From a virus (taxonomy: Duplodnaviria; Caudoviricetes), in the IMG/VR virus record IMGVR_UViG_3300033148_005414, positions 1 through 62,310 of that record: a stretch of DNA of 62,310 bases. One strand, given 5' to 3'. Positions 4,386 through 58,752 of this stretch are shown here, piece by piece (the stretch's first letter is position 1; every line of letters begins with the position of its first letter). Under the pieces are notes generated by a model. It saw nothing but the letters and a program-made list of their open reading frames with translations, ran no database searches and was not told the DNA's origin. A program made the position numbers and the translations under genes.

Positions 4386-5867
4386 TTACGCTGCCCAGCC
4401 ACCAGATTTCCGACGTTTTACTGGTCTGGCTGATACTTTTACAATTTTCATACCTTCGCGGATCATTAATACGCCATACTGAAGCGCTTCATGAACATGA
4501 GAGAAGATATTCTTTTTAGGTTGATCCTTATAGCGTTCTTCGCCAACAACCTGCACTCGCTCGTACATAAAGGCACCATTAAAGCCTTTTCGTAGATATT
4601 TGCATTTTGGGGAAATAATAAATCCGGGCTCGCCATCAATATCATTTTTTAATAAAACCTCTGCTACAGCTTCGCGTCTTGCAATTGGGTTCTGAGTTGA
4701 TGCGGGTTCTGTTGGAAACCCCTCTTCTTCAAGAATATCCATGCACGTGCTTTCATCTGTTTGTACGCCATAACCACCGGATGGATCACCCCATATCCGT
4801 ATTGTCATACCGCCATATTCATTATTGATTTTTGGCCGTAGCGCCTCACGAACAAAGCGACGTACACCCATATCTTCAGAGACTATTTCATCAAGCACTC
4901 GAACCTGCCCTGTTGGAGATAATTGGAATAAAGCAGCAGCTGGGGTGCGGCCAAAATCAAGACCGATATACAGGGTGAGCCCTCGCATAACTTCAAGCTC
5001 TTCTTCAGCACAATGAATTGAGTCAACATATTCATTGTATATTGGCTTACCATCATAAACTGTTGCGTAATCACCAAGAACATAAGACTTAATCCATTCT
5101 TGTGATTTGCCATGGACCATTTGAGTCCAGTATTTAAAGCCAAGTGGTTGATTTTCAACATTTTCAGCGTCTGGATTTGGGAGGTACATAACCTGCCCTT
5201 TTTCATCCACTGCTTTAATGAGCGCCCCGGGTTGACGAAAGAATTTGTAACCTTCAGGTTTTTCTATTTCTGCTATAGAGTACCACCAGTGATCATCATC
5301 CGGCGGGTTAGTATCAAGGATAACCCCGGTAAAGGTTAATTCGCCTTGACGTTTTGCTGGGTAACGGCCTACGCGCATAGTTACACCATCAAGAATGATT
5401 CGCGGAAGCTCCCGGGCTTCGTTGATCCACGCCATCGTTAATTCCATAGAAAGTAATTTCTTAACATCTTTTGGCCGATCTAGAGCAAGAAACCATATCT
5501 CAAATTCAAGTATCGTTCCTTCTGGGAATTTTTCTGTAGGAGGAGCAGCGCAGCGAATCGTGCCTGTTATTGGTGAACCCCAGTTCATATGACATATCGA
5601 TGCCGGGAACCAGTCTTGCCATGTTTTAATTGTTGTTGTTTTTAGTTCTGGGTAGGAGTTACGAATGGCTGCTGCACGGAAACGACGAACACCATCAAAC
5701 CCGGGGGCTTGCTGCATTGCCCTCCATACGAGCTCAAGGCAGCAAGCCACAGATTTCCCAGACCCAACAGGCCCCATAATGCCACGAACAAATTTATCAG
5801 ATCCATGGAATTTAGCTGGGGTTTTTTCAGCCTTATAGTTTATATCGAGTGCTTTTTCTTCACTCAC
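4386..5867 (-). CDS. terL: Terminase large subunit
   Basis: Walker A GPVGSGKS, Walker B-like WINEARE, nuclease motifs LDFGRTPAA and HVHEALQY. Confidence 0.95.
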   Translation of the reverse strand: MSEEKALDINYKAEKTPAKFHGSDKFVRGIMGPVGSGKSVACCLELVWRAMQQAPGFDGVRRFRAAAIRNSYPELKTTTIKTWQDWFPASICHMNWGSPITGTIRCAAPPTEKFPEGTILEFEIWFLALDRPKDVKKLLSMELTMAWINEARELPRIILDGVTMRVGRYPAKRQGELTFTGVILDTNPPDDDHWWYSIAEIEKPEGYKFFRQPGALIKAVDEKGQVMYLPNPDAENVENQPLGFKYWTQMVHGKSQEWIKSYVLGDYATVYDGKPIYNEYVDSIHCAEEELEVMRGLTLYIGLDFGRTPAAALFQLSPTGQVRVLDEIVSEDMGVRRFVREALRPKINNEYGGMTIRIWGDPSGGYGVQTDESTCMDILEEEGFPTEPASTQNPIARREAVAEVLLKNDIDGEPGFIISPKCKYLRKGFNGAFMYERVQVVGEERYKDQPKKNIFSHVHEALQYGVLMIREGMKIVKVSARPVKRRKSGGWAA

Positions 5868-10337: not shown

Positions 10338-10673
10338 TTATTTTCCTATTCCGGGCCAATGCCCTGTTGTTATTAATGTCCAGACTGCAGCAACCACTAA
10401 ACCAAAAGCTATTATCCATTTTGCCGCGACCCCTATCCACCCGAGTACGCGAAAAAATCCTTTAGCGGAGCGAAATATAGCCAGCATTTCGGTGAAATCA
10501 ATAATAAACTGATCCCAGTCGCTTTTCATCTCAGCCACAACCCCCTGATGATCACCAAGCTCTCCTCGGAGTGCTTCTATCTGCATTCCCACTTCAGTTT
10601 CACATTTTTGCAGTTTCTTCATAACGCTCTCCGGAGTATGCTTCCTGCGCTCAGGCTCTTGGCCGCTAGTCAT
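10338..10673 (-). CDS. Coiled-coil protein with C-terminal TM
   Basis: Hydrophobic C-terminus WIGVAAKWIIAFGLVVAAVW. Confidence 0.65.
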   Translation of the reverse strand: MTSGQEPERRKHTPESVMKKLQKCETEVGMQIEALRGELGDHQGVVAEMKSDWDQFIIDFTEMLAIFRSAKGFFRVLGWIGVAAKWIIAFGLVVAAVWTLITTGHWPGIGK

Positions 10674-11297: not shown

Positions 11298-11567
11298 TTA
11301 TTGCATCATTGATGGCTGCTTATGCTCAACTAGAAAATCAACCTCAATAAAACCTTCCGTTGTCTCTTTGCTTATAGGTTGAATAGCGCCTTGAATTATT
11401 TTCACCATATCAAGTGGTGGTTGTTTGTCAATAAATAAAATAGGAGGAGCTTGCATTAATGACATAAAATGAAGGGCAAGTTTAATCAGTGCATGATCCA
11501 TATTGTCAGCTTCAAACGCTACTTCGCTATCAAGAGTAAACTTCATACAAACTCCATTAATGACCAC
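11298..11567 (-). CDS. Hypothetical protein
   Basis: ORF in operon; probable start MKFTLD at ~11546. Confidence 0.6.
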   Translation of the reverse strand: MVINGVCMKFTLDSEVAFEADNMDHALIKLALHFMSLMQAPPILFIDKQPPLDMVKIIQGAIQPISKETTEGFIEVDFLVEHKQPSMMQ

Positions 11568-11806
11568 TCATTTATGTCTAATGGTAGCCTAGTTGCTCCT
11601 GCTTTGCGAAATTCTATTTGCATCTGCCGCCAGTTTCCAATTTCTTTATTGTATGGCATTGTTACTACAATATAATTATACCCACGCAAACCTTCTAATT
11701 TTTTTGGATCGGTTGCATGAATAAAGCGATCTGGCAATATACCTTTATCTTTGCAGTAATTAATTAAATGCTGATATTCAGCTGCGATAGCTATGATTTT
11801 TTGCAT
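11543..11806 (-). CDS. Hypothetical protein
   Basis: 87-aa ORF, coupled to neighbours. Confidence 0.65.
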   Translation of the reverse strand: MQKIIAIAAEYQHLINYCKDKGILPDRFIHATDPKKLEGLRGYNYIVVTMPYNKEIGNWRQMQIEFRKAGATRLPLDINEWSLMEFV

Positions 11807-15446: not shown

Positions 15447-15486
15447 TGAGAATGATTCTTATTCATTAATGGGAATGATTCTTATT
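15447..15486. promoter_or_regulatory. Tandem Fur-box-like sites
   Basis: TGAGAATGATTCTTA (15447-15461) and TGGGAATGATTCTTA (15470-15484) resemble the 7-1-7 Fur consensus TGATAATnATTATCA; 14-nt direct repeat at 23-nt spacing. Confidence 0.6.
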
Positions 15487-15875: not shown

Positions 15876-16119
15876 CTAATCATACCGACGCGCATTCTGG
15901 TGTTGGTTACTGGAACGGCTCAGTATAATCAGTCGGGATGTGGAGAAGTCCAGCATAGCACTGGAATGAAAGCATCGATAAACCAGAGCGCTTTCACCTG
16001 AGAACGCTCTGCTTTATTAACTGGAGTAAACATCATGCTTAATACTAAGAATCTGGGCTATCTGGCGCAGTTAAAGCGCTTGGCAGCTATGTCTAACCCT
16101 AAACGTGAGGTAAACCATC

Positions 16120-16359
16120 ATGAAACTAAGAAAACTAGCAAACAACGTGACAGTGATAGAAACGGACGCTAAAAGCATCTTGATAAGCTATGAAACGCCA
16201 GTAGCAGTGCTTTATCACGGCAATGGCAAGTATGTGAAGACTGAGAAAAAATGGTCTGCCACTACCAGTAAGCACATAAATGCGTGGTTAGGCGGCGCTG
16301 AGGCTAAATTAGAGCCACAATCGTACTTTGATGATATTTTAAATACTGCAAATCTTTAA
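16120..16359 (+). CDS. Conserved phage early protein (SYxTxVA / S-x-TT-x-KH motif)
   Basis: GAGG RBS; ISYETPVA...WSATTSKHINAWL. Confidence 0.8.
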   Translation: MKLRKLANNVTVIETDAKSILISYETPVAVLYHGNGKYVKTEKKWSATTSKHINAWLGGAEAKLEPQSYFDDILNTANL

Positions 16360-16437
16360 TATCCCACGCGCACGAGGAATTTTCCGTGAAAGGCGGGCTT
16401 TCCCCCAAATAAATCGTTATTCCTAAACGATAATCTA

Positions 16438-16456
16438 AATGATAATGATTCTCATT
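16438..16456. promoter_or_regulatory. Fur box
   Basis: AATGATAATGATTCTCATT has one mismatch to AATGATAATnATTATCATT; an extra GATAAT hexamer lies upstream; intergenic, ~30 nt before ATG 16487. Confidence 0.7.
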
Positions 16457-16486
16457 CTTTACACTATTTTATAAGTGAGGTGCAAC

Positions 16487-16888
16487 ATGAATACAGATAG
16501 AGCTCTAATCAGTGCACTACGGGAACGTATAGACATGAAGCAAGCCGTTAGATTCATACGGATACAAGACGATAAGACTAATGATAAAGACGTTATACCT
16601 CTTATACTTCGTTATGAGGCTGTTCATGATACAAAAGGCGTTTTATCAATTAATACAATGGTTGATATCCTGAACAATGACCTATTCGAGATATATACCT
16701 GTAATGATAAGCCAGTTACCTATTGCGATAAATTGCAACCAGCTGGTGCTGTTACAGGCTGGGATATCAAGTGGGTATTAGCTCCTAACCGTGAAGCTAT
16801 TAAACAATATCCATTCTTTGACTGCATTATAACCAAGAATGATAACTCAACCGGTCGAGCGACTGATGCTGAGCTATTCATTCCCTAA
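16487..16888 (+). CDS. Hypothetical early protein
   Basis: ATG 16487 after GAGGTG. Confidence 0.75.
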   Translation: MNTDRALISALRERIDMKQAVRFIRIQDDKTNDKDVIPLILRYEAVHDTKGVLSINTMVDILNNDLFEIYTCNDKPVTYCDKLQPAGAVTGWDIKWVLAPNREAIKQYPFFDCIITKNDNSTGRATDAELFIP

Positions 16889-16889
16889 T

Positions 16890-16952
16890 GTCGAAACTGG
16901 TCTGGAGGCCAGTCTACCAACTTGAGTATGTTGGTACTGATGAGACTACTCA
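16890..16952 (+). ncRNA. Hammerhead ribozyme, type II (HH1), with loop-I pseudoknot
   Basis: gtc-GAAA-ctggtc(tgga)ggccag-TC^-taccaac(ttgagtat)gttggta-CTGATGA-gac. All core nucleotides and stems I-III present; cleavage after C16914; loop TGAGTA pairs with 3' TACTCA. Confidence 0.93.
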
Positions 16953-16970
16953 CTAACTGGAGGTCATCCC

Positions 16971-17399
16971 ATGTCAAAACGATACGCTAAAATAAAGCGG
17001 TCAAGACTTGCAAAAAATGACAATAATAATTGTTCTGTTATTGCTACGTCTATCGCTTGCCGTGTTTCATACTTTAAAGCCCATGCTGCATGCGCTAGCT
17101 CAGGCCGTAAAGATGGCCATGGCTTGAGCAATGAAGGCGTTCTTTTAGCCGCTGAGCGGTTAGGTTGTGAGCTTGCCCCTGTAACTAATAGAAACGGTAA
17201 ACCATTACTTCAAAAGAACGGTTCAAAGTTCACACCCAAAACAATCAGCAAAAGATTGAAGTCTGGGTATTTTCTTTGCTTCGTTCATAGTCATGTTTTC
17301 TCAGTGGTTAATGGTCAAGTCGAAGACTGGACTAATAACAGAGCTCACCACATTTATGAAGTGTGGCGTGTCTCAGTACCAAAGGGATCACGCTCTTAA
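16971..17399 (+). CDS. Early protein with possible papain/C39-like Cys-His-Asp triad
   Basis: GGAGG RBS; NNNCSVIATSIAC...HSHVFSVVNGQVEDW. Confidence 0.7.
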   Translation: MSKRYAKIKRSRLAKNDNNNCSVIATSIACRVSYFKAHAACASSGRKDGHGLSNEGVLLAAERLGCELAPVTNRNGKPLLQKNGSKFTPKTISKRLKSGYFLCFVHSHVFSVVNGQVEDWTNNRAHHIYEVWRVSVPKGSRS

Positions 17400-17498
17400 T
17401 ACCCCTATAAATAAATTCAATTATCAATCTGTGAACTACTGGCCTATTGTTGGTTAGTAGTTCAATAACCACTTAGTCAACTAAGTAAGGAGCACATC

Positions 17499-17768
17499 AT
17501 GCCTACTCAATTCACTGCAATATATAAACCTAAGCCAATTAAGTCTAGCCCGCTTAGGGATGAAGTTTGTCAAACTAGGCCAATTGTAGTTGGCCGTGAC
17601 CGGTCTCAGGCTCGCATCTCAATAGTTGAAGCTAAAGAACTACAATCCCAGCTGTCAATTGCTATCCGTCAAGCCGAACACAATCTAATCGTTACCAAAA
17701 AGGGTGCTGTATTAGAAGAGCACTACATTCATGGCTTCAAATACTTCACTTGCCCTAACCAACATTAA
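17499..17768 (+). CDS. Hypothetical early protein
   Basis: TAAGGAG RBS. Confidence 0.75.
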   Translation: MPTQFTAIYKPKPIKSSPLRDEVCQTRPIVVGRDRSQARISIVEAKELQSQLSIAIRQAEHNLIVTKKGAVLEEHYIHGFKYFTCPNQH

Positions 17769-17771
17769 ACC

Positions 17772-17836
17772 TATCGAAACACGGTTCGAGGCCGTGTCTG
17801 TGTAAGTTGAGAACTTGCATACTGATGAGATAACTC
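17772..17836 (+). ncRNA. Hammerhead ribozyme, type II (HH2)
   Basis: tatc-GAAA-cacggt(tcgag)gccgtg-TC^-tgtgtaagt(tgaga)acttgcata-CTGATGA-gata; cleavage after C17798; loop GAG can pair with 3' CTC. Confidence 0.92.
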
Positions 17837-17869
17837 TTTGAATTATAGAACAAAACAGGAGAAATAACC

Positions 17870-18106
17870 ATGCCAAACTTTGATAGAATTAAGAAATATG
17901 AGCAGGATTTTAATGAAGGTAAAGCCATTGCTATTATCTGGTGTACTGATGATGTTAAACACCGTGCACTTGAATCTAAAATTAAACTTACTGAACAGGA
18001 GTGCATTGATGTTCTCTCAGTGATAAAAAATAACCATGATTGCAATTATGGCCTTACATGGGAGACCATCGATACAGTGGTGGACGATATCGTCAAGGAG
18101 CGGTGA
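17870..18106 (+). CDS. Conserved phage early protein
   Basis: AGGAG RBS; IAIIWCTDDV...HDCNYGLTWETI. Confidence 0.8.
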   Translation: MPNFDRIKKYEQDFNEGKAIAIIWCTDDVKHRALESKIKLTEQECIDVLSVIKNNHDCNYGLTWETIDTVVDDIVKER

Positions 18107-18171
18107 AACAATTTATACCTATGCTTTTAATGATGGGTATATGTGGTTTTACTAAAAGAGAGGTGAATATC

Positions 18172-18591
18172 ATGAGCAGATCAGTATCAACACCAAACGG
18201 AGCGGTAGCTATTGCATACCGTGACGTTACATATATGACTGATGAAGATTCTCAATGGGAATGGGATATGTTCCAAGAGGATATTATTCAGCAACTACAA
18301 AATGCTTTCCCATCACTTGATGAGGCTGATAGTTGGATCGGACGTGAGGATCATGTAGTCCTCGAAAACAGTCATTGTCAGGTAACTATCTCAGAATATT
18401 GCGGCTTAGCTGCAATTTCATTAGTGCCTATTGAGCGAGACTGTTTCTACGCCGAGGATTTTGGCTCACAAAACTTATCCTATCATTGGTGCCAGCAAAT
18501 TGCTAAGAAATTCAACGAGTTACTGGGTGAACTACGGCATGTGGCCACCTTTAGTAATGGCGAGGCAGTATTTGAGCGTATAGCGCAATAG
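18172..18591 (+). CDS. Acidic hypothetical early protein
   Basis: ATG 18172 after GAGGTG; C-terminal TFSNGEAVFER. Confidence 0.8.
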   Translation: MSRSVSTPNGAVAIAYRDVTYMTDEDSQWEWDMFQEDIIQQLQNAFPSLDEADSWIGREDHVVLENSHCQVTISEYCGLAAISLVPIERDCFYAEDFGSQNLSYHWCQQIAKKFNELLGELRHVATFSNGEAVFERIAQ

Positions 18592-18643
18592 TCGAAACAC
18601 GCTGGGAGGCGTGTCTGCGGGATATACCCGTACTGATGAGACT
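18590..18643 (+). ncRNA. Hammerhead ribozyme, type II (HH3)
   Basis: agtc-GAAA-cacgct(ggga)ggcgtg-TC^-tgcggg(atata)cccgta-CTGATGA-gact; cleavage after C18615; overlaps the upstream TAG stop. Confidence 0.93.
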
Positions 18644-18654
18644 TGGAGAAAATT

Positions 18655-18855
18655 ATGGTATTCCATAAGCTATTTGTTACACACACCACGGGCGCAATTC
18701 GCAAGATTAGACTTAAGTTTGACACTAAACGCAGTATTGAGTCCTTGCGTTTGAGCGTCCTGTTTCCTATCGACTGGAAAATTACCTCAGTCGCATACTT
18801 AAACGCACCACGGAGGCGTAATGTCCCATATAACAATTACCATTCACACAAATAA
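18655..18855 (+). CDS. Basic hypothetical early protein
   Basis: ATG 18655 after GGAG, immediately 3' of HH3. Confidence 0.6.
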   Translation: MVFHKLFVTHTTGAIRKIRLKFDTKRSIESLRLSVLFPIDWKITSVAYLNAPRRRNVPYNNYHSHK

Positions 18856-19009
18856 TGCCGCGTTCGATGGTGATAATCATGATCATGAAGTGGCGCGTAT
18901 TTTGGCTGGACTGTCAACCGGCTGGGAACTTAAAAACGCATCGATTGCCCTTAGAGATATCAATGGCAATCGTGTTGGTGAATTTAACAGCTATATCGAT
19001 GAGGATTAA
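18821..19009 (+). CDS. Conserved small phage protein
   Basis: GGAGG RBS; NAAF...EVARIL...LRDINGNRVG motif. Confidence 0.8.
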   Translation: MSHITITIHTNNAAFDGDNHDHEVARILAGLSTGWELKNASIALRDINGNRVGEFNSYIDED

Positions 19010-19012
19010 GTT

Positions 19013-19219
19013 ATGGCAAATCAAGTGATCTTTAAACGTGCGGCATGGAAAAGAAATAAATCTTGGCCTGATGGCTGGGAGCCCTATGTTGGCCGTAAAG
19101 CTTACGTCACAACCGTTGACTCTATTGAAAAGGCTCAGCGGATCTGTAAACAACACAATGATGCACGTAAAAATCGCGGGGAAACATTCTGCGAGTTTAC
19201 CGCTGAATCAAATTATTAA
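19013..19219 (+). CDS. Hypothetical early protein
   Basis: GAGGA RBS; 68 aa. Confidence 0.7.
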   Translation: MANQVIFKRAAWKRNKSWPDGWEPYVGRKAYVTTVDSIEKAQRICKQHNDARKNRGETFCEFTAESNY

Positions 19220-19224
19220 GGAGA

Positions 19225-19407
19225 ATGTCGATGCAAATAACTAACCCAGACCGTGACATTATTATCGACTACCAGAACAACGGCGATAATATTAGGCGAG
19301 TAGCCACGTATCCCGATGGTCACTTAAAAATGACCCTTCTCGATAAAGACAAGGCTGATGAGGACGCAATCGACCTTGTAGATAATTACGACTACACATT
19401 TATTTAG
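19225..19407 (+). CDS. Acidic hypothetical early protein
   Basis: TAAGGAG RBS. Confidence 0.7.
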   Translation: MSMQITNPDRDIIIDYQNNGDNIRRVATYPDGHLKMTLLDKDKADEDAIDLVDNYDYTFI

Positions 19408-19471
19408 TTATTCAGTTAATAGGCGTCAGTAATGGCGTCTATTGTCGGACTAACTGAGAAAGGAGAATCCG

Positions 19472-19693
19472 ATGAGCGTTTTAGTAGTTACTACTATTGA
19501 GTACAGGTACTTAGAATCTCGCCAGCTTCGTATTACTTTAAATACTGGCTCCGAGATCACAGCTGAAGCTTGCCATGAAAGCTGGGAGCAGTGGGGAGGC
19601 ATACATGAAGAACTATGTTTCACTCAGTCAATTGTTGAGACCCATAACGACTGGCTTCATGGTGGCGAATTACCATTTTCTGGAGGTGAGTAA
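19472..19693 (+). CDS. Hypothetical early protein
   Basis: AAGGAG RBS. Confidence 0.7.
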   Translation: MSVLVVTTIEYRYLESRQLRITLNTGSEITAEACHESWEQWGGIHEELCFTQSIVETHNDWLHGGELPFSGGE

Positions 19694-19953
19694 TGTACGA
19701 TTATGAAGTTGAAAAAGCAGAACTGTTCACCGAGGCTGGTCAAGTAATGTTTCTAGCTATCCGTGACAAAGTACATAAGCTTTTAAAAACAGCTGGTGCA
19801 TTTAGATTGCAAGAAGCTATTGCTAATCAGAGCGGCAGTGGCTGGCAAATGTTAGCTTGTATTGACCGGCTAATTGAGTTGGGTGAGATAACAGAAATCA
19901 CCCCATCAAGCACAGCTGGCCAGTATCAAGTTTACATTGCTAGGCATAAATAA
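19693..19953 (+). CDS. Hypothetical early protein
   Basis: GGAGG RBS, TAATG coupling. Confidence 0.75.
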   Translation: MYDYEVEKAELFTEAGQVMFLAIRDKVHKLLKTAGAFRLQEAIANQSGSGWQMLACIDRLIELGEITEITPSSTAGQYQVYIARHK

Positions 19954-20039
19954 AATTATACCCCTATTAAAAATACTCATTATCAAATTGAGTATTATAA
20001 GGCCATAATTACCTTTTAGGCATTTATTAGGAGAAATAT

Positions 20040-20279
20040 ATGGCAGAACAATGCCGAGGTGAGGTTCATTTTTACGGGGATAAACAGGAGAAACTTGTCG
20101 AATTTGTTGACAGTTTTGACTTTCCACGGCGTCGGCCTGATGAGCCATTGATTGTTTTTAAAGAGCGCATCACTGAGTTGGTTGTGAGTTTAAGTCGCAC
20201 CACTGCTGGCCGTGAAATTATTGAAGTTAAGTGGATCGGGCCATTAGGCTATCACTATGGTTATGTCGATCCACGGTAA
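20040..20279 (+). CDS. Hypothetical early protein
   Basis: AGGAG RBS. Confidence 0.7.
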   Translation: MAEQCRGEVHFYGDKQEKLVEFVDSFDFPRRRPDEPLIVFKERITELVVSLSRTTAGREIIEVKWIGPLGYHYGYVDPR

Positions 20280-20335
20280 TTTAAACTAATACCGACGCTA
20301 ATTCTGGCGTCGGACACTTAAAGAGAGGTATTACT

Positions 20336-21103
20336 ATGTCTAATGTAAATTTATTACTTCACGCTGGCGGGTTTGCTGTTGATCGTGAGCAGCTAGAAAG
20401 AACTCAAACACCAGCACCCACTCAATCATGGACGCCAATTCCCCATGGCACCTTAGTTGATGAGGTTGAACGCTCATTATCGTCTGCTGGCTATCAAATT
20501 GTTGGTCAACAACATGCCTTGGCTCGCAATGATAATCGTTATTTTGGCTTATTTGAAATAACCAACGGCCATAATCACGACGATTACCATACTATCGTGG
20601 GCTTGCGTAACTCGCATGACAAATCATTCCCCGCTGGCCTTGTGGTTGGATCGGGTGTTTTCGTTTGTGACAACCTATGCTTTTCTGGTGAAATAAAGGT
20701 TGGCCGTCGGCATACCACTAATATCAACCGTGATTTAACTGGGTTAATCGACGCCGCTGTTGGCAAGGTTAATGGCTTGCGTGTTTCTCAAGACCAACGT
20801 ATTGAAAAATACAAGGCTACTGAATTAGATCAGCAATTGTCAGATCACTTGTTGATTGAATTATTACGTGCTCGTGTGGTTACTGCCACTAAGATCCCTA
20901 AGATCATTAAGTCGTTTGAGCACCCTGAGCACCCTGAGTTCAAGGCCGAAGGCTTCACTGCATGGCGTCTGTTTAATGCTGTCACTGAGAACTTGAAAGG
21001 CGGCTTAGCTGACCTACCACGTGTTGGTAACGCTTTACACGGTATCGTTGATGGCGTGTGTGGCGTAACAATTGATGCTGATTCTGGTTTAATTGTTCAC
21101 TAA
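20336..21103 (+). CDS. DUF932-family protein
   Basis: PIPHGTLV, GLRNSHDKS, VFVCDNLCF, RRHT, TAWRLFNAVTE motifs. Confidence 0.85.
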   Translation: MSNVNLLLHAGGFAVDREQLERTQTPAPTQSWTPIPHGTLVDEVERSLSSAGYQIVGQQHALARNDNRYFGLFEITNGHNHDDYHTIVGLRNSHDKSFPAGLVVGSGVFVCDNLCFSGEIKVGRRHTTNINRDLTGLIDAAVGKVNGLRVSQDQRIEKYKATELDQQLSDHLLIELLRARVVTATKIPKIIKSFEHPEHPEFKAEGFTAWRLFNAVTENLKGGLADLPRVGNALHGIVDGVCGVTIDADSGLIVH

Positions 21104-21107
21104 TTAT

Positions 21108-21132
21108 TGGGGCTTTCGGGCCCCCTTCTATT
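21108..21132 (+). terminator. GC hairpin, weak terminator candidate
   Basis: GGGGCT-TTCG-GGCCCC right after the stop; short U tract. Confidence 0.5.
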
Positions 21133-21149
21133 AAAAGAGGAGAAATATT

Positions 21150-21464
21150 GTGCGTAAGATTACATTAAAACTTAAACATGTTGGCGGGGTATACCAGCGC
21201 AATGGTGATTGTTTATTGTGCCATGATGCGTTAGGTGAATTATTTACCTTGCCAAAAGTACGCAGCACCCCAATCACTTTTATTATTAGCGACAAGGAAA
21301 CTAAAAACTCCTATAAAGTTCGGTTTGGCAAACCCAATGATTGTGATGTTTTTTATGAGGGGGAATGGCATTACAAGTGTCTTTTTGGTGATGCAGATAT
21401 TTTTATTAGCCGTCACGCCCTTAATGGTGCTACCTGCTGGGTTAACTTGTACTGGGAAGAATAA
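21150..21464 (+). CDS. Hypothetical protein (paralog of 22107..22435)
   Basis: GAGGAG RBS; shares LGELFTLPK, NSYKVRF and DCDVFY with the downstream copy. Confidence 0.75.
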   Translation: MRKITLKLKHVGGVYQRNGDCLLCHDALGELFTLPKVRSTPITFIISDKETKNSYKVRFGKPNDCDVFYEGEWHYKCLFGDADIFISRHALNGATCWVNLYWEE

Positions 21465-21470
21465 ATTAAT

Positions 21471-21489
21471 GGGCCTTCGGGCCCTTTTT
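21471..21489 (+). terminator. Intrinsic terminator
   Basis: GGGCC-TTCG-GGCCC-TTTTT. Confidence 0.75.
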
Positions 21490-21500
21490 CGGAGAAAATC

Positions 21501-22076
21501 ATGAAAGTGACAATTGATACAAATTACATGAGGGCCCTTTTTGAAGTGGTTCCTACCGAGGAGATTCGCACTTACTTAAAAGGTGTGCATTTACCTCCTG
21601 ACAGCGAACAACTAATGGCTTCCGATGGTTATAGGTTGCTTATTGTTCCGGTAAAATTAGAAGATCCGTTATTTAATGGATTAAACCATTTCTGCGAGGG
21701 CATCACTTTTAAATTGCCTGCAAGAAAACCTTTAAAGTCTGATAAGTATATAACTATCGAAACTGGACGCAATCCTGAGCGTTATGAAGAAATGACGTGG
21801 ACTTATTACGGTAAAAACAGCATGGTGCGCGAACAATGTATTTGCCATATTCAGGTTGGTAAGTTTCCTGATACTGATTTTATTGTTAATGGATATAGCA
21901 ACGCCAAACTGCCATCTATAGGCTTCAACCCAGCTTACTTGTTAGATGTTTATGCCGCCCTTGGTTATTTTGGGGGAGTCAGACTGCTAATGGGCTGTGA
22001 TAAACATTCTGCAATTAAAGTGGATTTTGGCAAGCAAACTAAAGCCAAATACTACTTAATGCCGATGCACTTATAA
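21501..22076 (+). CDS. Beta-clamp (DnaN)-domain-like phage protein
   Basis: RTYLKGVHL, LMASDGYRLL, GKFPD, IGFNPAYL and terminal LMPMHL mirror the DnaN central/C-terminal motifs. Confidence 0.7.
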   Translation: MKVTIDTNYMRALFEVVPTEEIRTYLKGVHLPPDSEQLMASDGYRLLIVPVKLEDPLFNGLNHFCEGITFKLPARKPLKSDKYITIETGRNPERYEEMTWTYYGKNSMVREQCICHIQVGKFPDTDFIVNGYSNAKLPSIGFNPAYLLDVYAALGYFGGVRLLMGCDKHSAIKVDFGKQTKAKYYLMPMHL

Positions 22077-22106
22077 TTTTTTAACTAAAAGAGAAGGAGA
22101 AGTAAA

Positions 22107-22435
22107 ATGAGTAAAATTGAAATAAAACTAAAGCACCGCCGCACCGCATTTGGTGAGGATTATTTCACGCCATTTGGTAATAAAGTGGCGTTAATATGCC
22201 GTGAAATTTTAGGTGAACTGTTCACTTTACCTAAAAAACAAAGTCGATTACCCTTGTTGTGAGCTCAGAAGAAACGCCTAATTCATATAAGGTTCGCTTT
22301 GAAAACACTGATTGCGACGTTTTCTATGGAAATAAATGGCAGCGTGAATGCCTAACGGATCACGCTTACCAAGAAATTTGTAAACGTGGCTTGGAAGGTA
22401 AAACTGTCTGGGTATCTTTTTACTGGTACGAATAA
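22107..22435 (+). pseudogene. Frameshifted paralog of 21150..21464
   Basis: ATG 22107 after AAGGAG. Homology continues in the -1 frame after the A6 run at 22233-22238; one extra A restores a 109-aa ORF. Confidence 0.8.
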
Positions 22436-22475
22436 CTTAACCTGCGCCAAGGATGGTGCTAATTAGGAGAATACT

Positions 22476-22793
22476 ATGGAGCCTGAAAAGTTAAAAATTA
22501 TAGCAGAAGGGATGGGGAAAGATGTAAGAATATGCGACTACCCACCGGCATTTAAAGGTAAGGTATTACTATGGGAAAACCACAAAGAATTTGTTTATAC
22601 CCCCCTCACAAACAACGACCAGATGGTTGAGATAATGGAGAAGTTGAAAACTAATTTAATAAATTATAGCTCTGATGGATGGGAGTGTTATACCAACCCA
22701 ATAGACCCCGCTACTCGGTTTAAAGGCAAGTCAGTCAACGAAGCCGTATGCAATGCTGCTTATGAATATTTCAAAAAAGGAGAAGGGGAGTGA
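22476..22793 (+). CDS. Hypothetical protein
   Basis: AGGAG RBS; 105 aa. Confidence 0.7.
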   Translation: MEPEKLKIIAEGMGKDVRICDYPPAFKGKVLLWENHKEFVYTPLTNNDQMVEIMEKLKTNLINYSSDGWECYTNPIDPATRFKGKSVNEAVCNAAYEYFKKGEGE

Positions 22794-37819: not shown

Positions 37820-38017
37820 ATGGAGATTATTGCGATATTATTCATGCCGATATTGATTATCGTAGGAGGGCTAGCTATAGGTTTTGCCCCAATCGTGGCT
37901 GGCGCAATAACACATCAATTCACAGAAGATAAACTACCAAAAAGCGGCTGCTGGATTTTAACCATAGCCGCTTTTTTTATGTCGGTTTATTTAATCGACC
38001 TTTTGTTCGTTCATTAA
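37820..38017 (+). CDS. Small two-TM membrane protein, likely leaderless
   Basis: Two hydrophobic helices; TGcTATACT extended -10 ends 7 nt before the ATG. Confidence 0.55.
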   Translation: MEIIAILFMPILIIVGGLAIGFAPIVAGAITHQFTEDKLPKSGCWILTIAAFFMSVYLIDLLFVH

Positions 38018-41000
38018 CTCATAAACATATTTTTTCCGCTTGTAAAAATCCTTACGAATCTTAGGGCGACCCTCTTTATTAGCGGTTGCTAATGCTCGAG
38101 TTTGCGCTGCATCCATAAATTGAGATGTCATACGCCAGCGGGGGATACGGCCATTCATAATATAACGAATATCAGATTTATTAACTTTAGCAGCCTTTAA
38201 TACACGGCTAATCACAGACTTTTTAACACCTAATTTTTCCGCAGCATTCACCATTTTAATCATTTCCGTGAAGCCCTTTTTACGGGCGCGGATCATCCCG
38301 GAAAAACCACGTTTAATGTCTTTTTCTGTAACTGTTGATCCACTACCAACAACCTTATTAAGTTGTTGAGTAGCTAATGATTTTACATCCTTAAACTCTA
38401 AAGTTTTATAGTAAATTGATTGCGGCACGTTAAGCGTCCCCATACGGAAGCCAACCAAAGCAACCGCTTCATCCTCAATCTTGTATTCTTTTCCGCTAGG
38501 TGATGTTTCGCCACGAATGGCTTTTGTCATGCGCTCAGCATTAGAAACAACGCCGGGTTGAGCGGCTTTACGGAAATGATTAATCATATCCAACGCAATT
38601 TCATCTGTTGGTGCTTCAGGATTATAAATTTTTGTCCCGGTGCCTGCACGCTTATTGGAATAGATTTCCATTAAAGCTCCTGCTGCAATATCGACGCCAA
38701 TAAAGGGCTCAAGAAACTCAACCAGAGCATCTAATACCTTTTTATCAATACCTTCGTTATTTTTATTTAAGATGGCAGTAATTGGTTTTTTCAGGTATGT
38801 GTACGGATCAAAATATGAAAAATCGATATATTTAGGATACCCGCTCTCGTCATAACCTAAATAAATTAATTGTGAATTGCGTACCCATGGGGCAGCTAAA
38901 GACCGCACTGCCTCATCATCATCAGATTCGAGGCCCATCATCACCATAGACATATATGACAAAGTGGCTGAAATTGAAGTGGCCATTGCCATTCCTAAAG
39001 TGCGTTGAGCCACCATTTTTGTATTACCAGCAGCCACGTCTTCTTTCAAAAACTTCATTTGATTTGCTGTAGTACGAACAATTTCATATGGGAATGAAAC
39101 AAAAGTACCAATCAGCGGCCAGCGACGCACCATTTTCACAGCACGAGGGACCATTGAATAAGTTGGATACCCATTACGAATACGATAAGCGGCTTTAATT
39201 TCAGCGTCTTTACGAGACTTACCGGTTTCCATTTGTAGTTTGATTTCATTTTCAAAGCCAATAATTTTCCAAAAATCATCACCAACTTGATATAGCCGCT
39301 GCATGAAATTCAAGAAACGGCGTAGTGACTTGGTTGGGCCCTTAGAATAAATATCGATATTCATAAAGTCTTCCAAAGCATGCCGTAATTCTTCTGCCCG
39401 AGGGTTATCATGTAGAACACCCAATGAAATCAAATTATTAAGGTATTTACGCCATTTTGTATCTTTAGTAAATAAATCTGACTGGGCTGCGCGAAACGCT
39501 TTTTGCCCATGACTCCAATCAAAATGACCATTCATTACTGAGAACATTGCTGCAGACATGAAGTTACGGGCCTGAGTGGTTGGAGCAAGAATTGTTTTGC
39601 CGTACTTAACAGCTGAGTTAAGGCGAATAAAGCTACGCATAACAGCCCCACCCTCGATAGCATCACGCATATCTTCCAGCCCCTGAATAAAGTCCTCTGT
39701 TGTGTACAGGCCGTCAATTGGGTTCATTGTTTCCGCGCCTTTGGCTGCAATACGCTTGTCGAATTTCCCTATAGGGCGTTCAAACATAAAAATCCCAAGG
39801 CCACGGCTACGCAGCTGCATTAGAAATTCATGATTTGCTAAATAATTGTACATTTTGGTGGCTGAACGAACAAAATTAATACGTGGGTCAAGATATTCAC
39901 CCAATAATTCACGGATCACATCAGGGACATCCTTGCGATTAGTTAGCATGGATACATCTTTTGTTCCGTATTTGGTGCCACCAGAAATGAATGAGAAAAA
40001 ATTCCCTTTATCTTTTGCGGCCTGAAGAATTGCACGTACTGCACCATGAACCTCTTCTGGAATAAGGTCAGGGTTGCGCTCGGCAATATAGGCTTCTGCA
40101 CGCTTAATTAAGTCTTTATTCTTGAGAGCTTTGTTTTTCCATTTTGCATTATCAAACGCCTCATATGAGCGATTCATATAAGTACCCATATTTTTACTGA
40201 TAGTTTGGTGCATTTCAAAGTGGCTGCGAATTGACGCAGGAACATAGCCATCAGGTTCACCCTTTAAAAAGGATTCAAACGCCTCATTATCTGCTTGACT
40301 TAATTTTGCACGCTGAATTACCATCATATCGACCATGGCTTTCTGCATACCGCCGGATAACCGGTCAAGATAAGCACGCATACCATCCAATGTTTCTTTC
40401 ATCTCGGTGGATAGCCCAGCAACCTTTTCACCATGCAGGTAATTATTTACTTTTAACAACTGCTCCTCTGAGATAGACACATAATTCTTAGTGCCAAATT
40501 CTTTATTCATCGCCTCTTCAAACTTGTGGATAACAAATGAAACGTCTTCTTCTCCAGCTTTTTTCAGTGAATCACTTTTGATTTTTGCCTCAAAACCTTC
40601 GTCGTTTAAAAGCCCTTCTTTAGTAAAGTGACGCCTTACAAACTTGGCCACGGAGCGCATTGCTGAAGGATCAGATTCATTAGTTGTTTTAAGATCATTT
40701 TGGATCTGCTGGACTGTATCGGCGGCAATTTGTGGCACTTCACCAGTTTGAACAGCTTGACGCATTCCAACGATAACTTCGACAAGCTCAGAGTTAGTTA
40801 AGCGAACAGATGGCATAATATTTCGCAGCCATTGTGCGATTTTAGCAAGCGTCCGGGTAACGATGGTGGATTTAGGGTTGGTCTCAGCCGTAACAGCAAT
40901 AAGTTCCTCTGTTAATTCAAGGCGGTTTTTAGGTGTGATCTGAACACCCCAAGTTTTGGCTAAATCACGAATTTTTTCTTTGTTGTCACGATAGACTTCC

Positions 41001-44000
41001 TCAAGGAATGGATTAATTTCATCGCCAAATAAGCCACGTAAACCATGGTGGCCCATAACTTCGTGCATTATTACTTTAAATAATTCTGCCTTAGAGTTAA
41101 TTTTATCAGCAACCAAATAAACCCTTCCTTCAGATGGGACGTACATACCAATAACTTGTTCATAAGAGTCAGTGGTGATTAATGACTCACGAATATGTGC
41201 TGGCAGCTCTTCTTTAACTGCAACAACCTCCATTTCTGGCGCATTCTTCCAGTTTTTTTGGACCACTACTGCTGTTTTTTCAATATACGCAACGCTGAGC
41301 CCTTTTCCACCTTTTGCAGCCCCGCGACTTGCTAAAACCGTCAACGGATCTTTCCCAACCTTAATAGCGGCTCGTAATTCACTTTCATGGATACGCTTAT
41401 ATGTATCTAAATTAATGCCTTTGGTTGGTTTACGGCCCTGTTCTCTTGCTATGGCGTTTTCAGTATTTTCAAACATTTTTAATACTGATTTTACACTAGG
41501 CAATGTTCCACGTGGAACAAAGCCATATTCACCGAGATCACCAAAATCCCCGGTTAGCACGCGGTATGAAGCATCAGCCACATTAGTATTATATTCATGA
41601 GCAAATCCAGCAGGGTCAACAGTGATGCCCATTTCTGCAAAAAGCATGCGCTGCACACGGAAAGCAACATCCTCCCATTCAACAGCACGCTGGGCTTCTT
41701 TAAGAGTTAATGGCTCCAACTCCACTTGCGCTTGTTTTTTGTCTGGGTGCCCACGGGTAGCCATCCAAGATTGACCCAAGCGACCTTCACGGCGGCTGTC
41801 CCCATAGCGTTTTTGCATGAAGTCCTCAGTGATGGCATGACCAAGTTCATGTACGATACGCCATTGTCGGGTGTATTCGGCGTCCTTGAACGAGCCGTGT
41901 GCCACACGCGGGTCATAGATCCATAAATACCCATCTTTATATCCTTGTTTTTTAAGTTTAGGGATGACAAATTCAACGCCAGCCTCTTTATCTACATGGA
42001 ATGAGAAATATTTTACCTCAAAACCAAAGCGCTTAACTAAATCCCTAACTAACTTCGGGTTAGTAACGAGTTTATCGAGATTATAAAATTTAAGGTTTTT
42101 GGTGGTGTCTTTTTTAGCGTCAAGCACGCCAAATTTCCCGTAAACATCGGGGATTGGTTTTGCGTTTAGTCGAGATAAGGGTATTGGTGAGGTAAGCGTC
42201 CGACCCGGGGCTTTTTGTCCTGTTTCTTGCTCTTGATATCCGGTGCCCCAGAAATCACGAAGCCCTTTCCGTGTGGGGCTGTAACGTAATTTATTTTTCC
42301 GCTCCCAGACGCCGATTTCTCGGTTGTAAGCTGAGATACCTTCTTGTCTTGAGTCCCAACTTCCGATGAGCTCGCCTTGGCCTTTGTATGCTTCGATGTC
42401 TTGTTCATATTTCTTACCTAATTTAGAGACACTCTTGCTAAGAGTAGTGCCTTCATCATAAATTACAACTGTAGTGCCGGTTGGACCGGGAATTAATGTA
42501 CGAAAGTCTAATTTTAACTCATCAAGTGTTGAGCGTACAGCTTCAATGTTACCCTTTTCTAATGGGATTTTGATTTTATAGAAGGAATCAACCCCATTTT
42601 CATCAGCAATAAACGATAAAGCTCCTTTTTGATTAAAAAACTTACCTGTCAATGAAGCGGCGTATTTTAGCTGATCCATTGATTTTGGAGATTCAACCTC
42701 AATTAATAAGCTGTCCTCGGCACCATCAATCCAGTCACCAAGAGCATCACTTGTGGTGTGCTCAAGTCCCATTTCATCAAAAATATCATCAGTAATAGCG
42801 TGTGAGGTTTGATGCTTTTCAGAGCGAATTGAAGTAGCAGCCTCATCAAATGACATTTGAGCATCCCAGTCGTTCGGGGAAACAGCCACAAAACCTTTCT
42901 TTTTGGTTGGAGGTTTCTGTTGTCGAGACAACAGAATCGCCGCCGAATCCGGTAATGCTTTTTTAGCTTTTGGGCTATGAACAAAGCGCTTAAATTGCTC
43001 GGTACTTAATGGCACTATTGAATCAAAACCAGCCCACTTTTTATCGTAGTTAGCCATGTATGCAGCTTTAGCGGCTTTCTCGTCTGGGTAGCCAATCATT
43101 ACCTTGTGTTCATCGAACTTGCCAGTAGTAGGATTATTTTGATTAACAACGTAAAAAGTATCAGCAGTTTCAGCATCAGGACCCAGAAACACGTCCACAT
43201 GATCGCCATCGGCACCTTGAGTCCGTTTAATATATCCATAATGAGCCCCCATTTTTTGGGACCACTTCTGGCCACCTTCATCGACGCCAGAGCGTATTGA
43301 TCCTTTGGGGTTTTCAATAGCTACGTCCATTCCCTGAACTTGCGTATGCCCTTTCTTGTAGTTACCTGCCTCTTTTTGGGCCTCGGTAGGTGCGGTGTCC
43401 ACTTGGGTCGCCGCCTCCTCAATGGGTAATCCGTATTTTTTCTCTGGCTTAGCTGCTTCAAACGCGGCTTCCATGACTGATTTAGGCTTAGCGGAAATAG
43501 CTCGCTCTGCTTTTTCAGCCTCAAGACTTTGCTTAATTTGCCCTGCAGTGGTTGGAGCAGCAGGCTCAAGATCAGCAGGAACAACAGTTGTTTTTTGGAT
43601 TTCCGCAAAAGCTTTTTCTTCATCAGCCTTTTTTTGATTGGTTTGATCTGCTTCATATTCATCGAAAGCAACAACTGCCTCACTAAAAATCTTTTTATCT
43701 CTTAGGATGTCTTTTAGATCGCTCACCGACTGTTTTGTGTCGATTTCATTTTCAATATCAGATTGAAGGGTTTCAAAAGCCTTTTTAAGAGCATCAATCT
43801 TCCCTTTATTTTCTGCTTTTGCACTATAATTATGAAGAGCAGTTGCAGCTTGATACGCCGAAGAGGCAGACGCACCTGTGCCTGCACCACCCATAATAGA
43901 TGGTAAAATACCTTCCGTTAAATCTTGTTTTGGACGCCACGCTAATTTTTTAGCGATATTCTGGACTAATTCTTGTAATCCCTCAGTTGTTCCTTCTGTA

Positions 44001-52664: not shown

Positions 52665-53317
52665 GCAAACGGCCTCATTTGTACTTTTGTATTTTGACGA
52701 GAATGACCTTTATTTGCCCGTATTGTCGCGTCCTTCACCCCGAGATCAAAATCTGCCTGCTCATCAGTAGCCTCCGATGGAGCGTACCAGTCACGGCCTT
52801 TCATCCCCATAAGGCGAGCTTTTGCACCATGAGCAATTGTTTCTGCCCACTGCTCGAAAATCCAATCAGGTACTCCGGCCGCGTCACGAGAGGGCTTCAT
52901 AATCAAACCAACTACCAGACTGTTTGTAATATCAACTTCTGGGATAGGGTATAGCCGACAATTTTCGGTATTCAACATCATAATCGATTCCGGCTTTGTC
53001 GCCGTTAAGGTGCGCCATACTTTTGTGCTAATTTTCATAGCATCTTCTGTTGTGACAGTGAGGTTGGTTTCCCCTGAATCTTCAGTAATGTACGCATAAT
53101 CAATAGACGAAATTGTTTCATCTGTATTGAGTTCCGTACAAAGTTCATATGTGTGGATATTTGCGGTGATATTAATGCGATCAAGCTCCTGACGCCAAAG
53201 TGTTGCACGCTGACAGAGCTCAATTGCTGCATTTTTAATGTAGTTTTTTGCTATAGGAATAGGGCAGTTTTCCACATAAGGTAATACTTCGCTTAAAAAA
53301 TCATCCCAATATTTCAT
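52661..53317 (-). CDS. Head-tail adaptor protein
   Basis: EVLPYVENCP...AAIELC; LYPIP; IAHGAKARL; position after capsid. Confidence 0.7.
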   Translation of the reverse strand: MKYWDDFLSEVLPYVENCPIPIAKNYIKNAAIELCQRATLWRQELDRINITANIHTYELCTELNTDETISSIDYAYITEDSGETNLTVTTEDAMKISTKVWRTLTATKPESIMMLNTENCRLYPIPEVDITNSLVVGLIMKPSRDAAGVPDWIFEQWAETIAHGAKARLMGMKGRDWYAPSEATDEQADFDLGVKDATIRANKGHSRQNTKVQMRPFA

Positions 53318-58568: not shown

Positions 58569-58752
58569 AGTTTTTAATTAACATTGTTGTATATCTTTGC
58601 TCAAGCTGATTGAGTTTTACATTCATCGTATTTATTAATTTCTCTAAATCATCTATTTTTTTCGTAACCTCAATGCGCGTTGATTCTGCTTTATCAATCG
58701 CAGCGCGGGCATTTCTCGTGGCTATTTCAGACCATGCTTTTTCTTCACTCAT
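58540..58752 (-). CDS. Small coiled-coil protein
   Basis: Heptad pattern; coupled. Confidence 0.65.
   Translation of the reverse strand: MSEEKAWSEIATRNARAAIDKAESTRIEVTKKIDDLEKLINTMNVKLNQLEQRYTTMLIKNFDGGSTVGD

Follow-up and report, generated by a model that had tools for sequence, protein, structure and literature searches.

Three type II hammerhead ribozymes lie between the cistrons of a complete tailed phage genome and probably divide its operon mRNA

Natural hammerhead ribozymes of type II were first reported by Perreault et al. (2011; PMC3088659), who also described the pseudoknot that pairs loop I of these RNAs with the 3' tail. The same article reports that clusters of hammerheads in prophages flank single genes or short gene blocks and proposes that they cut a long transcript into operon-length or gene-length mRNAs, with the production of circular or spliced RNAs as the alternative. 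Tandem sets are given there for Agrobacterium tumefaciens (a triple, flanking ardA), Clostridium scindens and Azorhizobium caulinodans; three tandem arrangements cleaved in vitro as expected, and the A. tumefaciens triple also cleaved in E. coli. Weinberg, Weinberg and Hammann (2019; PMC6765202) write that the processing of polycistronic RNA "has been suggested", giving products that differ in stability or translation efficiency, and that more work is needed to define the purpose of such ribozymes. Three type II hammerheads of Desulfovibrio vulgaris are reported to cleave in vivo on the basis of cyPhyRNA-seq (PMC8782182). In the literature that we searched no later functional study of phage hammerheads was found. 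Here we describe three type II hammerheads, which we call HH1, HH2 and HH3, in the virus record IMGVR_UViG_3300033148_005414. The window that we analyzed is this whole record (62,310 bases), which has direct terminal repeats and is rated 100% complete.

The new locus shares with the clusters of PMC3088659 the presence of several hammerheads on one strand, their gene-length spacing, a phage setting and the fact that most of the flanked genes have no known function. It differs in that those clusters reside in prophages whereas the window is the complete genome of a free phage from a metagenome, has other flanked genes, with no ardA among them, and is known from sequence alone. The D. vulgaris hammerheads (PMC8782182) are likewise of type II and adjoin hypothetical and phage-like genes, but they occupy three separate genome locations and are not serial in one operon. 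The arrangement and the processing hypothesis were already published in 2011, and the window is a further example of the arrangement. A sequence-only reading of this stretch had held that a function for such serial punctuation was not established; clustering, processing and circle formation were all put forward in PMC3088659, and what the window adds is one more case.

Each of the three motifs runs from the 5' strand of stem II through GAAA, hairpin III, GUC, hairpin I and CUGAUGA to the 3' strand of stem II (Table 1). Loops close off both stem I and stem III and stem II is open to the flanking RNA, which defines the topology as type II. Counted by script outward from the core, the contiguous stems I/II/III measure 7/3/7 base pairs (bp) in HH1, 10/4/8 bp in HH2 and 6/4/7 bp in HH3. 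The core C3-U4-G5-A6-N7-G8-A9 (CUGAUGA) is exact in all three copies, and G12-A13-A14, the A15.1-U16.1 pair and a non-G residue at H17 (C17) are present in each. All three copies also have the three helices and standard pairs at the positions adjoining the core (10.1-11.1, 1.1-2.1 and 15.1-16.1). When positions 16700-18800 were read, the three complete type II hammerheads announced by the sequence-only reading, with every coordinate and feature listed for them, were borne out. The same was true of their setting, in which stop codon, ribozyme and ribosome-binding site are packed together on the coding strand and HH3 overlaps the stop that precedes it. The phage DNA holds three hammerheads on the coding strand, spaced 884 and 817 nucleotides apart, each located between the stop and the next start of + strand open reading frames (ORFs), as described for clustered hammerheads.

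The bare core pattern had four matches in the window against 0.33 expected, and none of 100 shuffled sequences reached four. The fourth match, at 10494 (+), has stems of only 1/0/2 bp and was discarded as noise. We then scanned the viral contigs of IMG/VR with a degenerate core pattern that left the stems free but prescribed two bases to each side of stem II, which led to at least 120 viral loci, with 214 loose core matches listed. From these other contigs, and with nothing taken from the window, 20 distinct hammerheads of the commonest geometry were aligned without gaps (alignment A2), and a covariance model, R1, was built from A2 and run on the whole window with its filters off. R1 found HH3 at 46.7 bits (expect value, E, 1e-10), HH1 at 40.5 bits (7e-9) and HH2 at 31.7 bits (2e-6), the next-best match in the window scoring 18 bits. 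That match, at 53065-53125 (-) with an E of 0.015, lies inside a gene, is changed at core position 7, combines a very short stem III with non-standard pairing in the other two stems, and is probably due to chance. Once the three copies had been aligned to R1, 44 of the 44 cells were paired and both sides were changed in a compensatory manner in 8 of the 15 pairs; in the control, in which the partner was slid by 1-3 columns, pairing fell to 20-48% of cells. Other ribozyme classes were absent from the window in an Rfam search in E-value mode, the sole extra match being S15-leader-like and below its own cut-off.

The R1 scores and the compensatory pairing indicate that the three motifs are genuine hammerheads whose fold is kept by selection, and on this sequence evidence the phage has exactly three of them, which are paralogues. 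That they are chance look-alikes without function has practically no probability left. The hammerhead core is short and does arise by chance, as the match at 10494 illustrates, and all three motifs stay below the Rfam gathering score; the sites nevertheless share one strand, are all intercistronic and all three-stemmed, their cells are paired throughout with eight compensatory pairs, and a model made outside the window finds them at E values from 1e-10 to 2e-6, whereas the chance match is without stems. As judged from the sequences, this explanation is already refuted for practical purposes.

To compare the layout with that of other viral hammerheads we counted, among the 214 listed core matches, the 144 with stems I and III of at least 4 bp and a stem II of at least 2 bp, and dropped the other 70; the layout counts that follow refer to these 144 and are biased by the search pattern, in which two bases on either side of stem II were fixed. 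Stem II was 3 bp long in 83 and 4 bp long in 49, so that the short stem II of HH1-HH3 is normal for listed viral hammerheads, among which 3-4 bp dominates. The stop of an upstream ORF of at least 50 codons lay no more than 40 nucleotides (nt) from GAAA in 129; it overlapped stem II, as in HH3, in 47 (the commonest position) and preceded it by 1-3 nt in 56. Downstream, an ORF of at least 40 codons started within 120 nt past the core in 136, and in 78 of them the distance was 20-29 nt. By these counts the punctuation of stop, ribozyme and ribosome-binding site seen in the window is the standard layout of the type II family. This regularity is not mentioned in PMC3088659, whose main text nowhere uses the words "stop codon", although its supplements may already contain layout statistics or close relatives. 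Arrays on one strand also recur among the loci listed: two hammerheads at 12 loci, three at two loci, four at two, five at one and seven at two, with spacings of 250-1400 nt. The larger arrays (five hammerheads in L037/L155, seven in L034 and in L098, four in L146 and in L154) show the same succession of stop, stem II, ribozyme, ribosome-binding site and start. They differ from the window in having mostly pseudoknots of 5-6 bp and GC-rich stems, and their ribozymes cannot be aligned with those of the window outside the core. The packing of stop, ribozyme and ribosome-binding site is a concrete regularity that any functional model must explain.

A run resembling GGAGG, and thus a Shine-Dalgarno sequence, was observed within stem-loop III of all three copies (16902-16908, 17787-17791 and 18604-18609, all +). 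Among the 144 counted viral hammerheads GAGG occurs within stem-loop III in eight. The 7-nt word of HH1 is repeated at the real ribosome-binding site that follows it, at 16957-16963. The shared run may simply reflect the common descent of the three copies.

The reading that we favor, and consider probable on the sequence evidence, is that each ribozyme cuts during or after transcription and so splits the operon mRNA between cistrons. Each motif would fold once the polymerase has moved beyond its CUGAUGA and the 3' half of its stem II, and would then cut itself after C17, that is after 16914, 17798 and 18615. The transcript would then fall into an upstream piece ending past the gene at 16487-16888, two dicistronic pieces (16915-17798 and 17799-18615, for which the lengths of 884 and 817 nt proposed earlier are correct) and a downstream piece from 18616. 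Because the topology is of type II the ends of the products can be read from the sequence: upstream products would end in the stem III hairpin plus one nucleotide bearing a 2',3'-cyclic phosphate, and downstream products would have their 5'-OH on the first paired nucleotide of hairpin I, so that no 5' nucleotide is left single-stranded, and would carry the ribosome-binding site 12-40 nt later. The short stem II (3-4 bp) would let the cut products separate, the stop codon remaining on the upstream and the ribosome-binding site on the downstream product. The likely result would be that neighboring cistrons are uncoupled, each with a defined structured end, and that their stability and translation can differ. 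Hairpin and 5'-OH ends should slow 3' exonucleases and the 5'-end-dependent entry of RNase E, and we infer that stabilization by such ends and differential expression could follow. RiboJ, a synthetic insulator derived from a satellite-RNA hammerhead and with a measured effect on expression, acts in the way predicted for the phage ribozymes without being a relative of theirs: a self-cleaving hammerhead placed 5' of the ribosome-binding site strips off the preceding RNA context, and the new 5' end consists of a 5'-OH and a hairpin.

Part of the earlier interpretation is retained here: the motifs are real, of type II, on the coding strand and between cistrons, and self-processing is the best reading. 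Its claims of novelty, of stabilization through 5'-OH and hairpin-capped ends, of independence from RNase III and of circles go beyond the evidence. In particular, processing "without host RNase III" is unsupported. The one ribozyme-free junction of the unit, 99 nt at 17400-17498, carries hairpins of 13 and 6 bp (Table 1). This spacer folds with a z-score of -3.5, none of 200 shuffled sequences folding as well. Its hairpins (17432-17486) are not followed by a U-tract on the 3' side and do not form a typical terminator; they could be an ordinary processing or stabilizing site.

Database scores, predicted folds and related loci each supply results that weigh against the processing reading. Rfam run at its gathering cut-offs on the whole window returned nothing. 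In E-value mode the type II model RF02276 (Hammerhead_II; cut-off 37 bits) found HH1 at 31.0 and HH3 at 26.8 bits, and HH2 was not listed at E of 10 or less, so that the check with this model proposed by the sequence-only reading lists two copies, and all three miss the curated cut-off. A gathering cut-off is a threshold chosen by the curators and not a property of the RNA. The motifs share with RF02276 an identical catalytic core, a short open stem II and, in HH1, the pseudoknot. They are richer in AT than the seed, which results in scores below 37, and differ from it further by the run resembling GGAGG and by the lack of a recognizable pseudoknot in HH2 and HH3. A consensus scan for promoters and terminators gave 18 promoter-like sites where 23 would be expected, and 9 resembling terminators where the expectation is 7.7; as the counts are no higher than in shuffled sequences, the scan does not inform the question of a single transcript. 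A look-up of public sequencing runs that might contain RNA reads for the region listed none.

Folding calculations placed stems I and III in the minimum-energy and centroid folds of all copies, both alone and in a context of about 140 nt. The full three-stem junction was the minimum-energy fold for HH3 only; in the minimum-energy folds of HH1 and HH2 stem II is displaced by a competing hairpin of 3-4 bp, formed in part from core nucleotides. Only HH1 has a 6-bp pseudoknot (Table 1). In HH2 inspection by eye in the register of the family leaves 3 bp (17809-17811 with 17834-17836), and the longest contiguous match found by script with G-U pairs allowed is 4 bp, elsewhere in the tail and within the shuffled range. 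HH3 has no recognizable pseudoknot, the script giving 3 bp, again within the shuffled range; pairing of loop I with the 3' tail is accordingly not above chance in either copy. A search by eye for other partners, in the upstream flank or further downstream, revealed only AU-rich matches of 3-4 bp at chance level. In the counted viral hammerheads a pseudoknot of at least 5 bp was present in 69 of 144, compared with 13 of 144 after shuffling (one shuffle for each of the 144 tails, mostly yielding 3-4 bp). In A2, for which the pseudoknot was not a selected feature, this helix is 88% paired, with covariation in all five pairs. The pseudoknot is common in type II hammerheads without being obligatory, and fast cleavage usually requires it. 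In the mutational series of Perreault et al. (PMC3088659) this contact was critical: a pseudoknot reduced from 6 to 4 bp slowed the reaction about 20-fold, and anything shorter slowed it more than 100-fold at 0.5 mM Mg2+. They also report that 14 of the 18 consensus hammerheads tested were active and 4 of the 18 inactive in vitro, and that a recognizable tertiary contact is absent from many active natural hammerheads. With its 6-bp pseudoknot HH1 should be a canonical type II hammerhead that cleaves fast. HH2 and HH3 conform to the consensus and, as far as their sequences tell, may cleave slowly at cellular Mg2+.

These data could also mean that HH1 alone cleaves efficiently while HH2 and HH3 are slow, conditional or decaying, in which case the mRNA would be cut once, or cut depending on conditions such as the level of Mg2+ or the passage of ribosomes across the stop codon next to stem II. 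A ribosome at a stop codon covers the adjoining 5' half of a ribozyme with its footprint, and since the stops ahead of HH1, HH2 and HH3 lie 0-3 nt from stem II a terminating ribosome would unfold that half. Together with the 6-bp pseudoknot confined to HH1 (against 4 bp in HH2 and 3 bp in HH3, both in the shuffled range), the published rate losses on shortening and the 4 of 18 consensus hammerheads inactive in vitro (PMC3088659) speak for this possibility. We nevertheless consider it rather unlikely: the perfect cores of all three copies and the compensatory pairing of HH2 and HH3 speak for selection that continues, HH3 scores best and alone has its complete fold as the minimum-energy structure, and the tertiary contact is unrecognizable in many active natural hammerheads (PMC3088659).

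The sequence-only reading had suggested a survey of related loci for ribozymes at the same junctions. DNA similarity searches with positions 16000-20000 against 50,697 phage records gave no match, and no close relative of the phage covering the hammerhead region was found. The 624-amino-acid protein at 58752-60626 was tried as a terminase and rejected, having no PHROG match; a search with it returned three fragments, in whose records no hammerhead was found, a result of little weight as these are 5-35% complete. Homologues of the 139-amino-acid gene (Table 1) were found at 13 loci (31-52% identity) with no hammerhead within about 4 kb, and two whole records with such homologues likewise had none. 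For the 142-amino-acid gene a single-sequence scan of viral contigs detected no homologue. A profile search led to the identification of 21 viral loci, in four of which R1 finds a total of 14 hammerheads. At these four a hammerhead lies directly 5' of the homologue and is followed by a ribosome-binding site and ATG: L146 (47% identity), L154 (33%), L155 (26%) and L149, where the gene behind the hammerhead is a second copy, 26% identical to the 142-amino-acid protein. L154 and L155 have a further hammerhead past the homologue and belong to arrays of 4-5; L155 is the same contig as L037, in which five hammerheads score above the Rfam cut-off. The other 17 of the 21 viral loci, including two of the three closest (47-49%), have no hammerhead, and neither do five metagenome loci with homologues, where no other ribozyme class was found and only a tRNA was seen. 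Judged from these loci, the association of the 142-amino-acid homologues with hammerheads is recurrent but patchy, which agrees with the remark in PMC3088659 that flanked genes vary in identity. The survey hence answers in two ways: hammerheads recur in front of the 142-amino-acid homologues, and they are patchy there and absent beside the 139-amino-acid homologues at the 13 loci.

One locus of the survey, L102, has two small genes in common with the operon of the window (44% and 34% identity) and carries, at 11459-11578 (-), a Betaproteobacteria-1 RNA above the Rfam cut-off (87 bits). This RNA may offer a clue to which hosts related phages infect.

A recurrence of this kind is what would be expected if hammerheads marked the borders of mobile gene cassettes and traveled with the gene, cleavage mattering little for expression. 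In contigs that differ in other respects, homologues with 26-47% identity once more stand directly behind a hammerhead, two of these loci have a hammerhead past the gene as well, presence across homologues is patchy, and the flanked genes vary among arrays (PMC3088659). Against this, no repeats, integrase or reverse transcriptase were seen adjoining the units, a mechanism by which a hammerhead would move DNA is not known, the 139-amino-acid gene has no association (0 of 13 loci), and the tight packing of stop, ribozyme and ribosome-binding site points to a role in mRNA. We hold the cassette explanation to be improbable.

The processing reading has to be set beside one more, raised in PMC3088659 and, as regards circles, by the sequence-only reading, in which the 884-nt and 817-nt segments are closed into circular mRNAs, or spliced together, through the reverse hammerhead reaction or a host ligase of the RtcB type. 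The chemistry of the predicted cut ends is suitable, and since stems I and III are each a hairpin of their own, the short stem II is all that would have to form between neighboring half-ribozymes. Among the other arrays listed, 31 of 38 consecutive pairs could form a mixed stem II that equals or exceeds the shorter cognate one in length, a proportion biased upward by the two base pairs fixed in the pattern. In the phage itself, however, the mixed stem II has just 2 and 3 bp against 3-4 bp in the cognate stems, and the phage encodes no RtcB. Perreault et al. sought such products and state that they were not detected (data not shown; PMC3088659). We therefore disfavor circular mRNAs in this phage, and give this route a very slim chance.

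Viroids and retrozymes likewise consist of a unit bounded by two hammerheads with ligatable ends. Their border ribozymes are identical and mostly of type III, and circles are observed. In the window the ribozymes differ from one another, the mixed stem II is weak and the units are protein-coding mRNA. As only a short stem II, conserved in the family, must form between halves, it is conceivable that type II arrays are organized in a way that lets every 3' half-ribozyme pair with the 5' half that follows, giving circular or recombined gene-length mRNAs. As the stop codon abuts stem II, ribosome traffic could gate the cutting in such arrays. This wider idea is a speculation that we regard as very improbable; if it were true, the phage could make circular, exonuclease-proof mRNAs, and the dosage and lifetime of early proteins would be controlled by RNA topology.

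The phage is a tailed phage according to its PHROG matches, which include a major head protein, a head-tail adaptor, the large terminase, internal virion proteins and a DNA helicase. Most of its genes are on the - strand. The hammerheads lie in a + strand block of about 18 small ORFs at 16035-22793, which coincides with the switch in GC skew and in which few ORFs match a family (phrog_5643, phrog_3754, phrog_30886, DUF932 and a RusA-like resolvase). The label "early" for this block is a plausible guess based on the size and orientation of its genes. Searches of Pfam, NCBIfam and PDB sequences yielded nothing usable on the function of the flanked genes. In the 142-amino-acid protein Cys21, His108 and Asp119 are invariant across five homologues, and its predicted fold (predicted local distance difference test, pLDDT, 79) weakly resembles a C39-type papain-like peptidase (peptidase domain of ComA; template modeling score 0.52-0.53, E about 0.05). 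The start codon at 18655, that of the first ORF past HH3, lies within a 6-bp hairpin (18653-18668) in the minimum-energy and centroid folds.

Outside the hammerheads we observed a 13-nt AT-rich motif in three copies, at 15451-15463, 15474-15486 and 16444-16456 (+). Two of them are in the long non-coding region that separates the divergent gene blocks and the third is about 30 nt 5' of the first gene in the hammerhead-containing unit. If one mismatch is tolerated, 4 matches occur where 0.48 would be expected. The motif looks like a putative operator, and it may resemble an iron-repressor (Fur) box. A virion protein of 2,321 amino acids (37991-44956, -) was also seen to combine a region, residues about 436-673, that matches the PHROGs of endolysin, minor head protein and a DarB-like antirestriction protein with 800 C-terminal residues that match a virion structural protein.

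Table 1. Positions of the hammerhead elements, flanking signals, genes and hairpins in the window (aa, amino acids).
Feature	Position	Strand	Remark
HH1, type II hammerhead	16889-16952	+	including pseudoknot; sequence, model R1
HH1 stem II	16890-16892 / 16944-16946	+	3 bp
HH1 GAAA	16893-16896	+	
HH1 stem III	16896-16902 / 16907-16913	+	7 bp
HH1 GUC	16912-16914	+	predicted cut after C17 (16914)
HH1 stem I	16915-16921 / 16930-16936	+	7 bp
HH1 CUGAUGA	16937-16943	+	
HH1 pseudoknot	loop I 16923-16928 / 3' tail 16947-16952	+	6 bp; tail strand directly 3' of stem II
HH2, type II hammerhead	17772-17832	+	sequence, model R1
HH2 stem II	17772-17775 / 17829-17832	+	4 bp
HH2 GAAA	17776-17779	+	
HH2 stem-loop III	17779-17797	+	8 bp
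HH2 GUC	17796-17798	+	predicted cut after 17798
HH2 stem-loop I	17799-17821	+	up to 10 bp
HH2 CUGAUGA	17822-17828	+	
HH3, type II hammerhead	18590-18643	+	sequence, model R1
HH3 stem II	18590-18593 / 18640-18643	+	4 bp; overlaps TAG stop 18589-18591
HH3 GAAA	18594-18597	+	
HH3 stem-loop III	18597-18614	+	7 bp
HH3 GUC	18613-18615	+	predicted cut after 18615
HH3 stem-loop I	18616-18632	+	6 bp
HH3 CUGAUGA	18633-18639	+	
Stop upstream of HH1	16886-16888	+	TAA; 1 nt from stem II
Stop upstream of HH2	17766-17768	+	TAA; 3 nt from stem II
Stop upstream of HH3	18589-18591	+	TAG; -2 nt from stem II
Ribosome-binding site after HH1	16959-16963	+	begins 12 nt past stem II
Ribosome-binding site after HH2	17857-17861	+	begins 24 nt past stem II
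Ribosome-binding site after HH3	18645-18648	+	begins 1 nt past stem II
Next start after HH1	16971	+	
Next start after HH2	17870	+	
Next start after HH3	18655	+	
Cistron upstream of HH1	16487-16888	+	probable ATG 16487; longest ORF from GTG 16475; no match in PHROGs or Pfam
First cistron, HH1-HH2 segment	16971-17399	+	142 aa, phrog_3754
Hairpin in ribozyme-free spacer	17432-17464	+	13 bp; spacer 17400-17498
Hairpin in ribozyme-free spacer	17471-17486	+	6 bp; spacer 17400-17498
Second cistron, HH1-HH2 segment	17499-17768	+	89 aa, no family
First cistron, HH2-HH3 segment	17870-18106	+	78 aa, phrog_30886/10258
Second cistron, HH2-HH3 segment	18172-18591	+	139 aa, no family
First cistron after HH3	18655-18855	+	66 aa, no family
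Terminase-like protein	4386-5867		PHROG

The locus offers a compact natural test case, in which three paralogous ribozymes stand within 1.8 kb, of which one has a strong pseudoknot and the other two lack it, and in which the hammerhead-containing unit also has a ribozyme-free junction with a plain hairpin. As standard Rfam annotation misses HH1, HH2 and HH3, AT-rich hammerheads of phages are probably under-counted.

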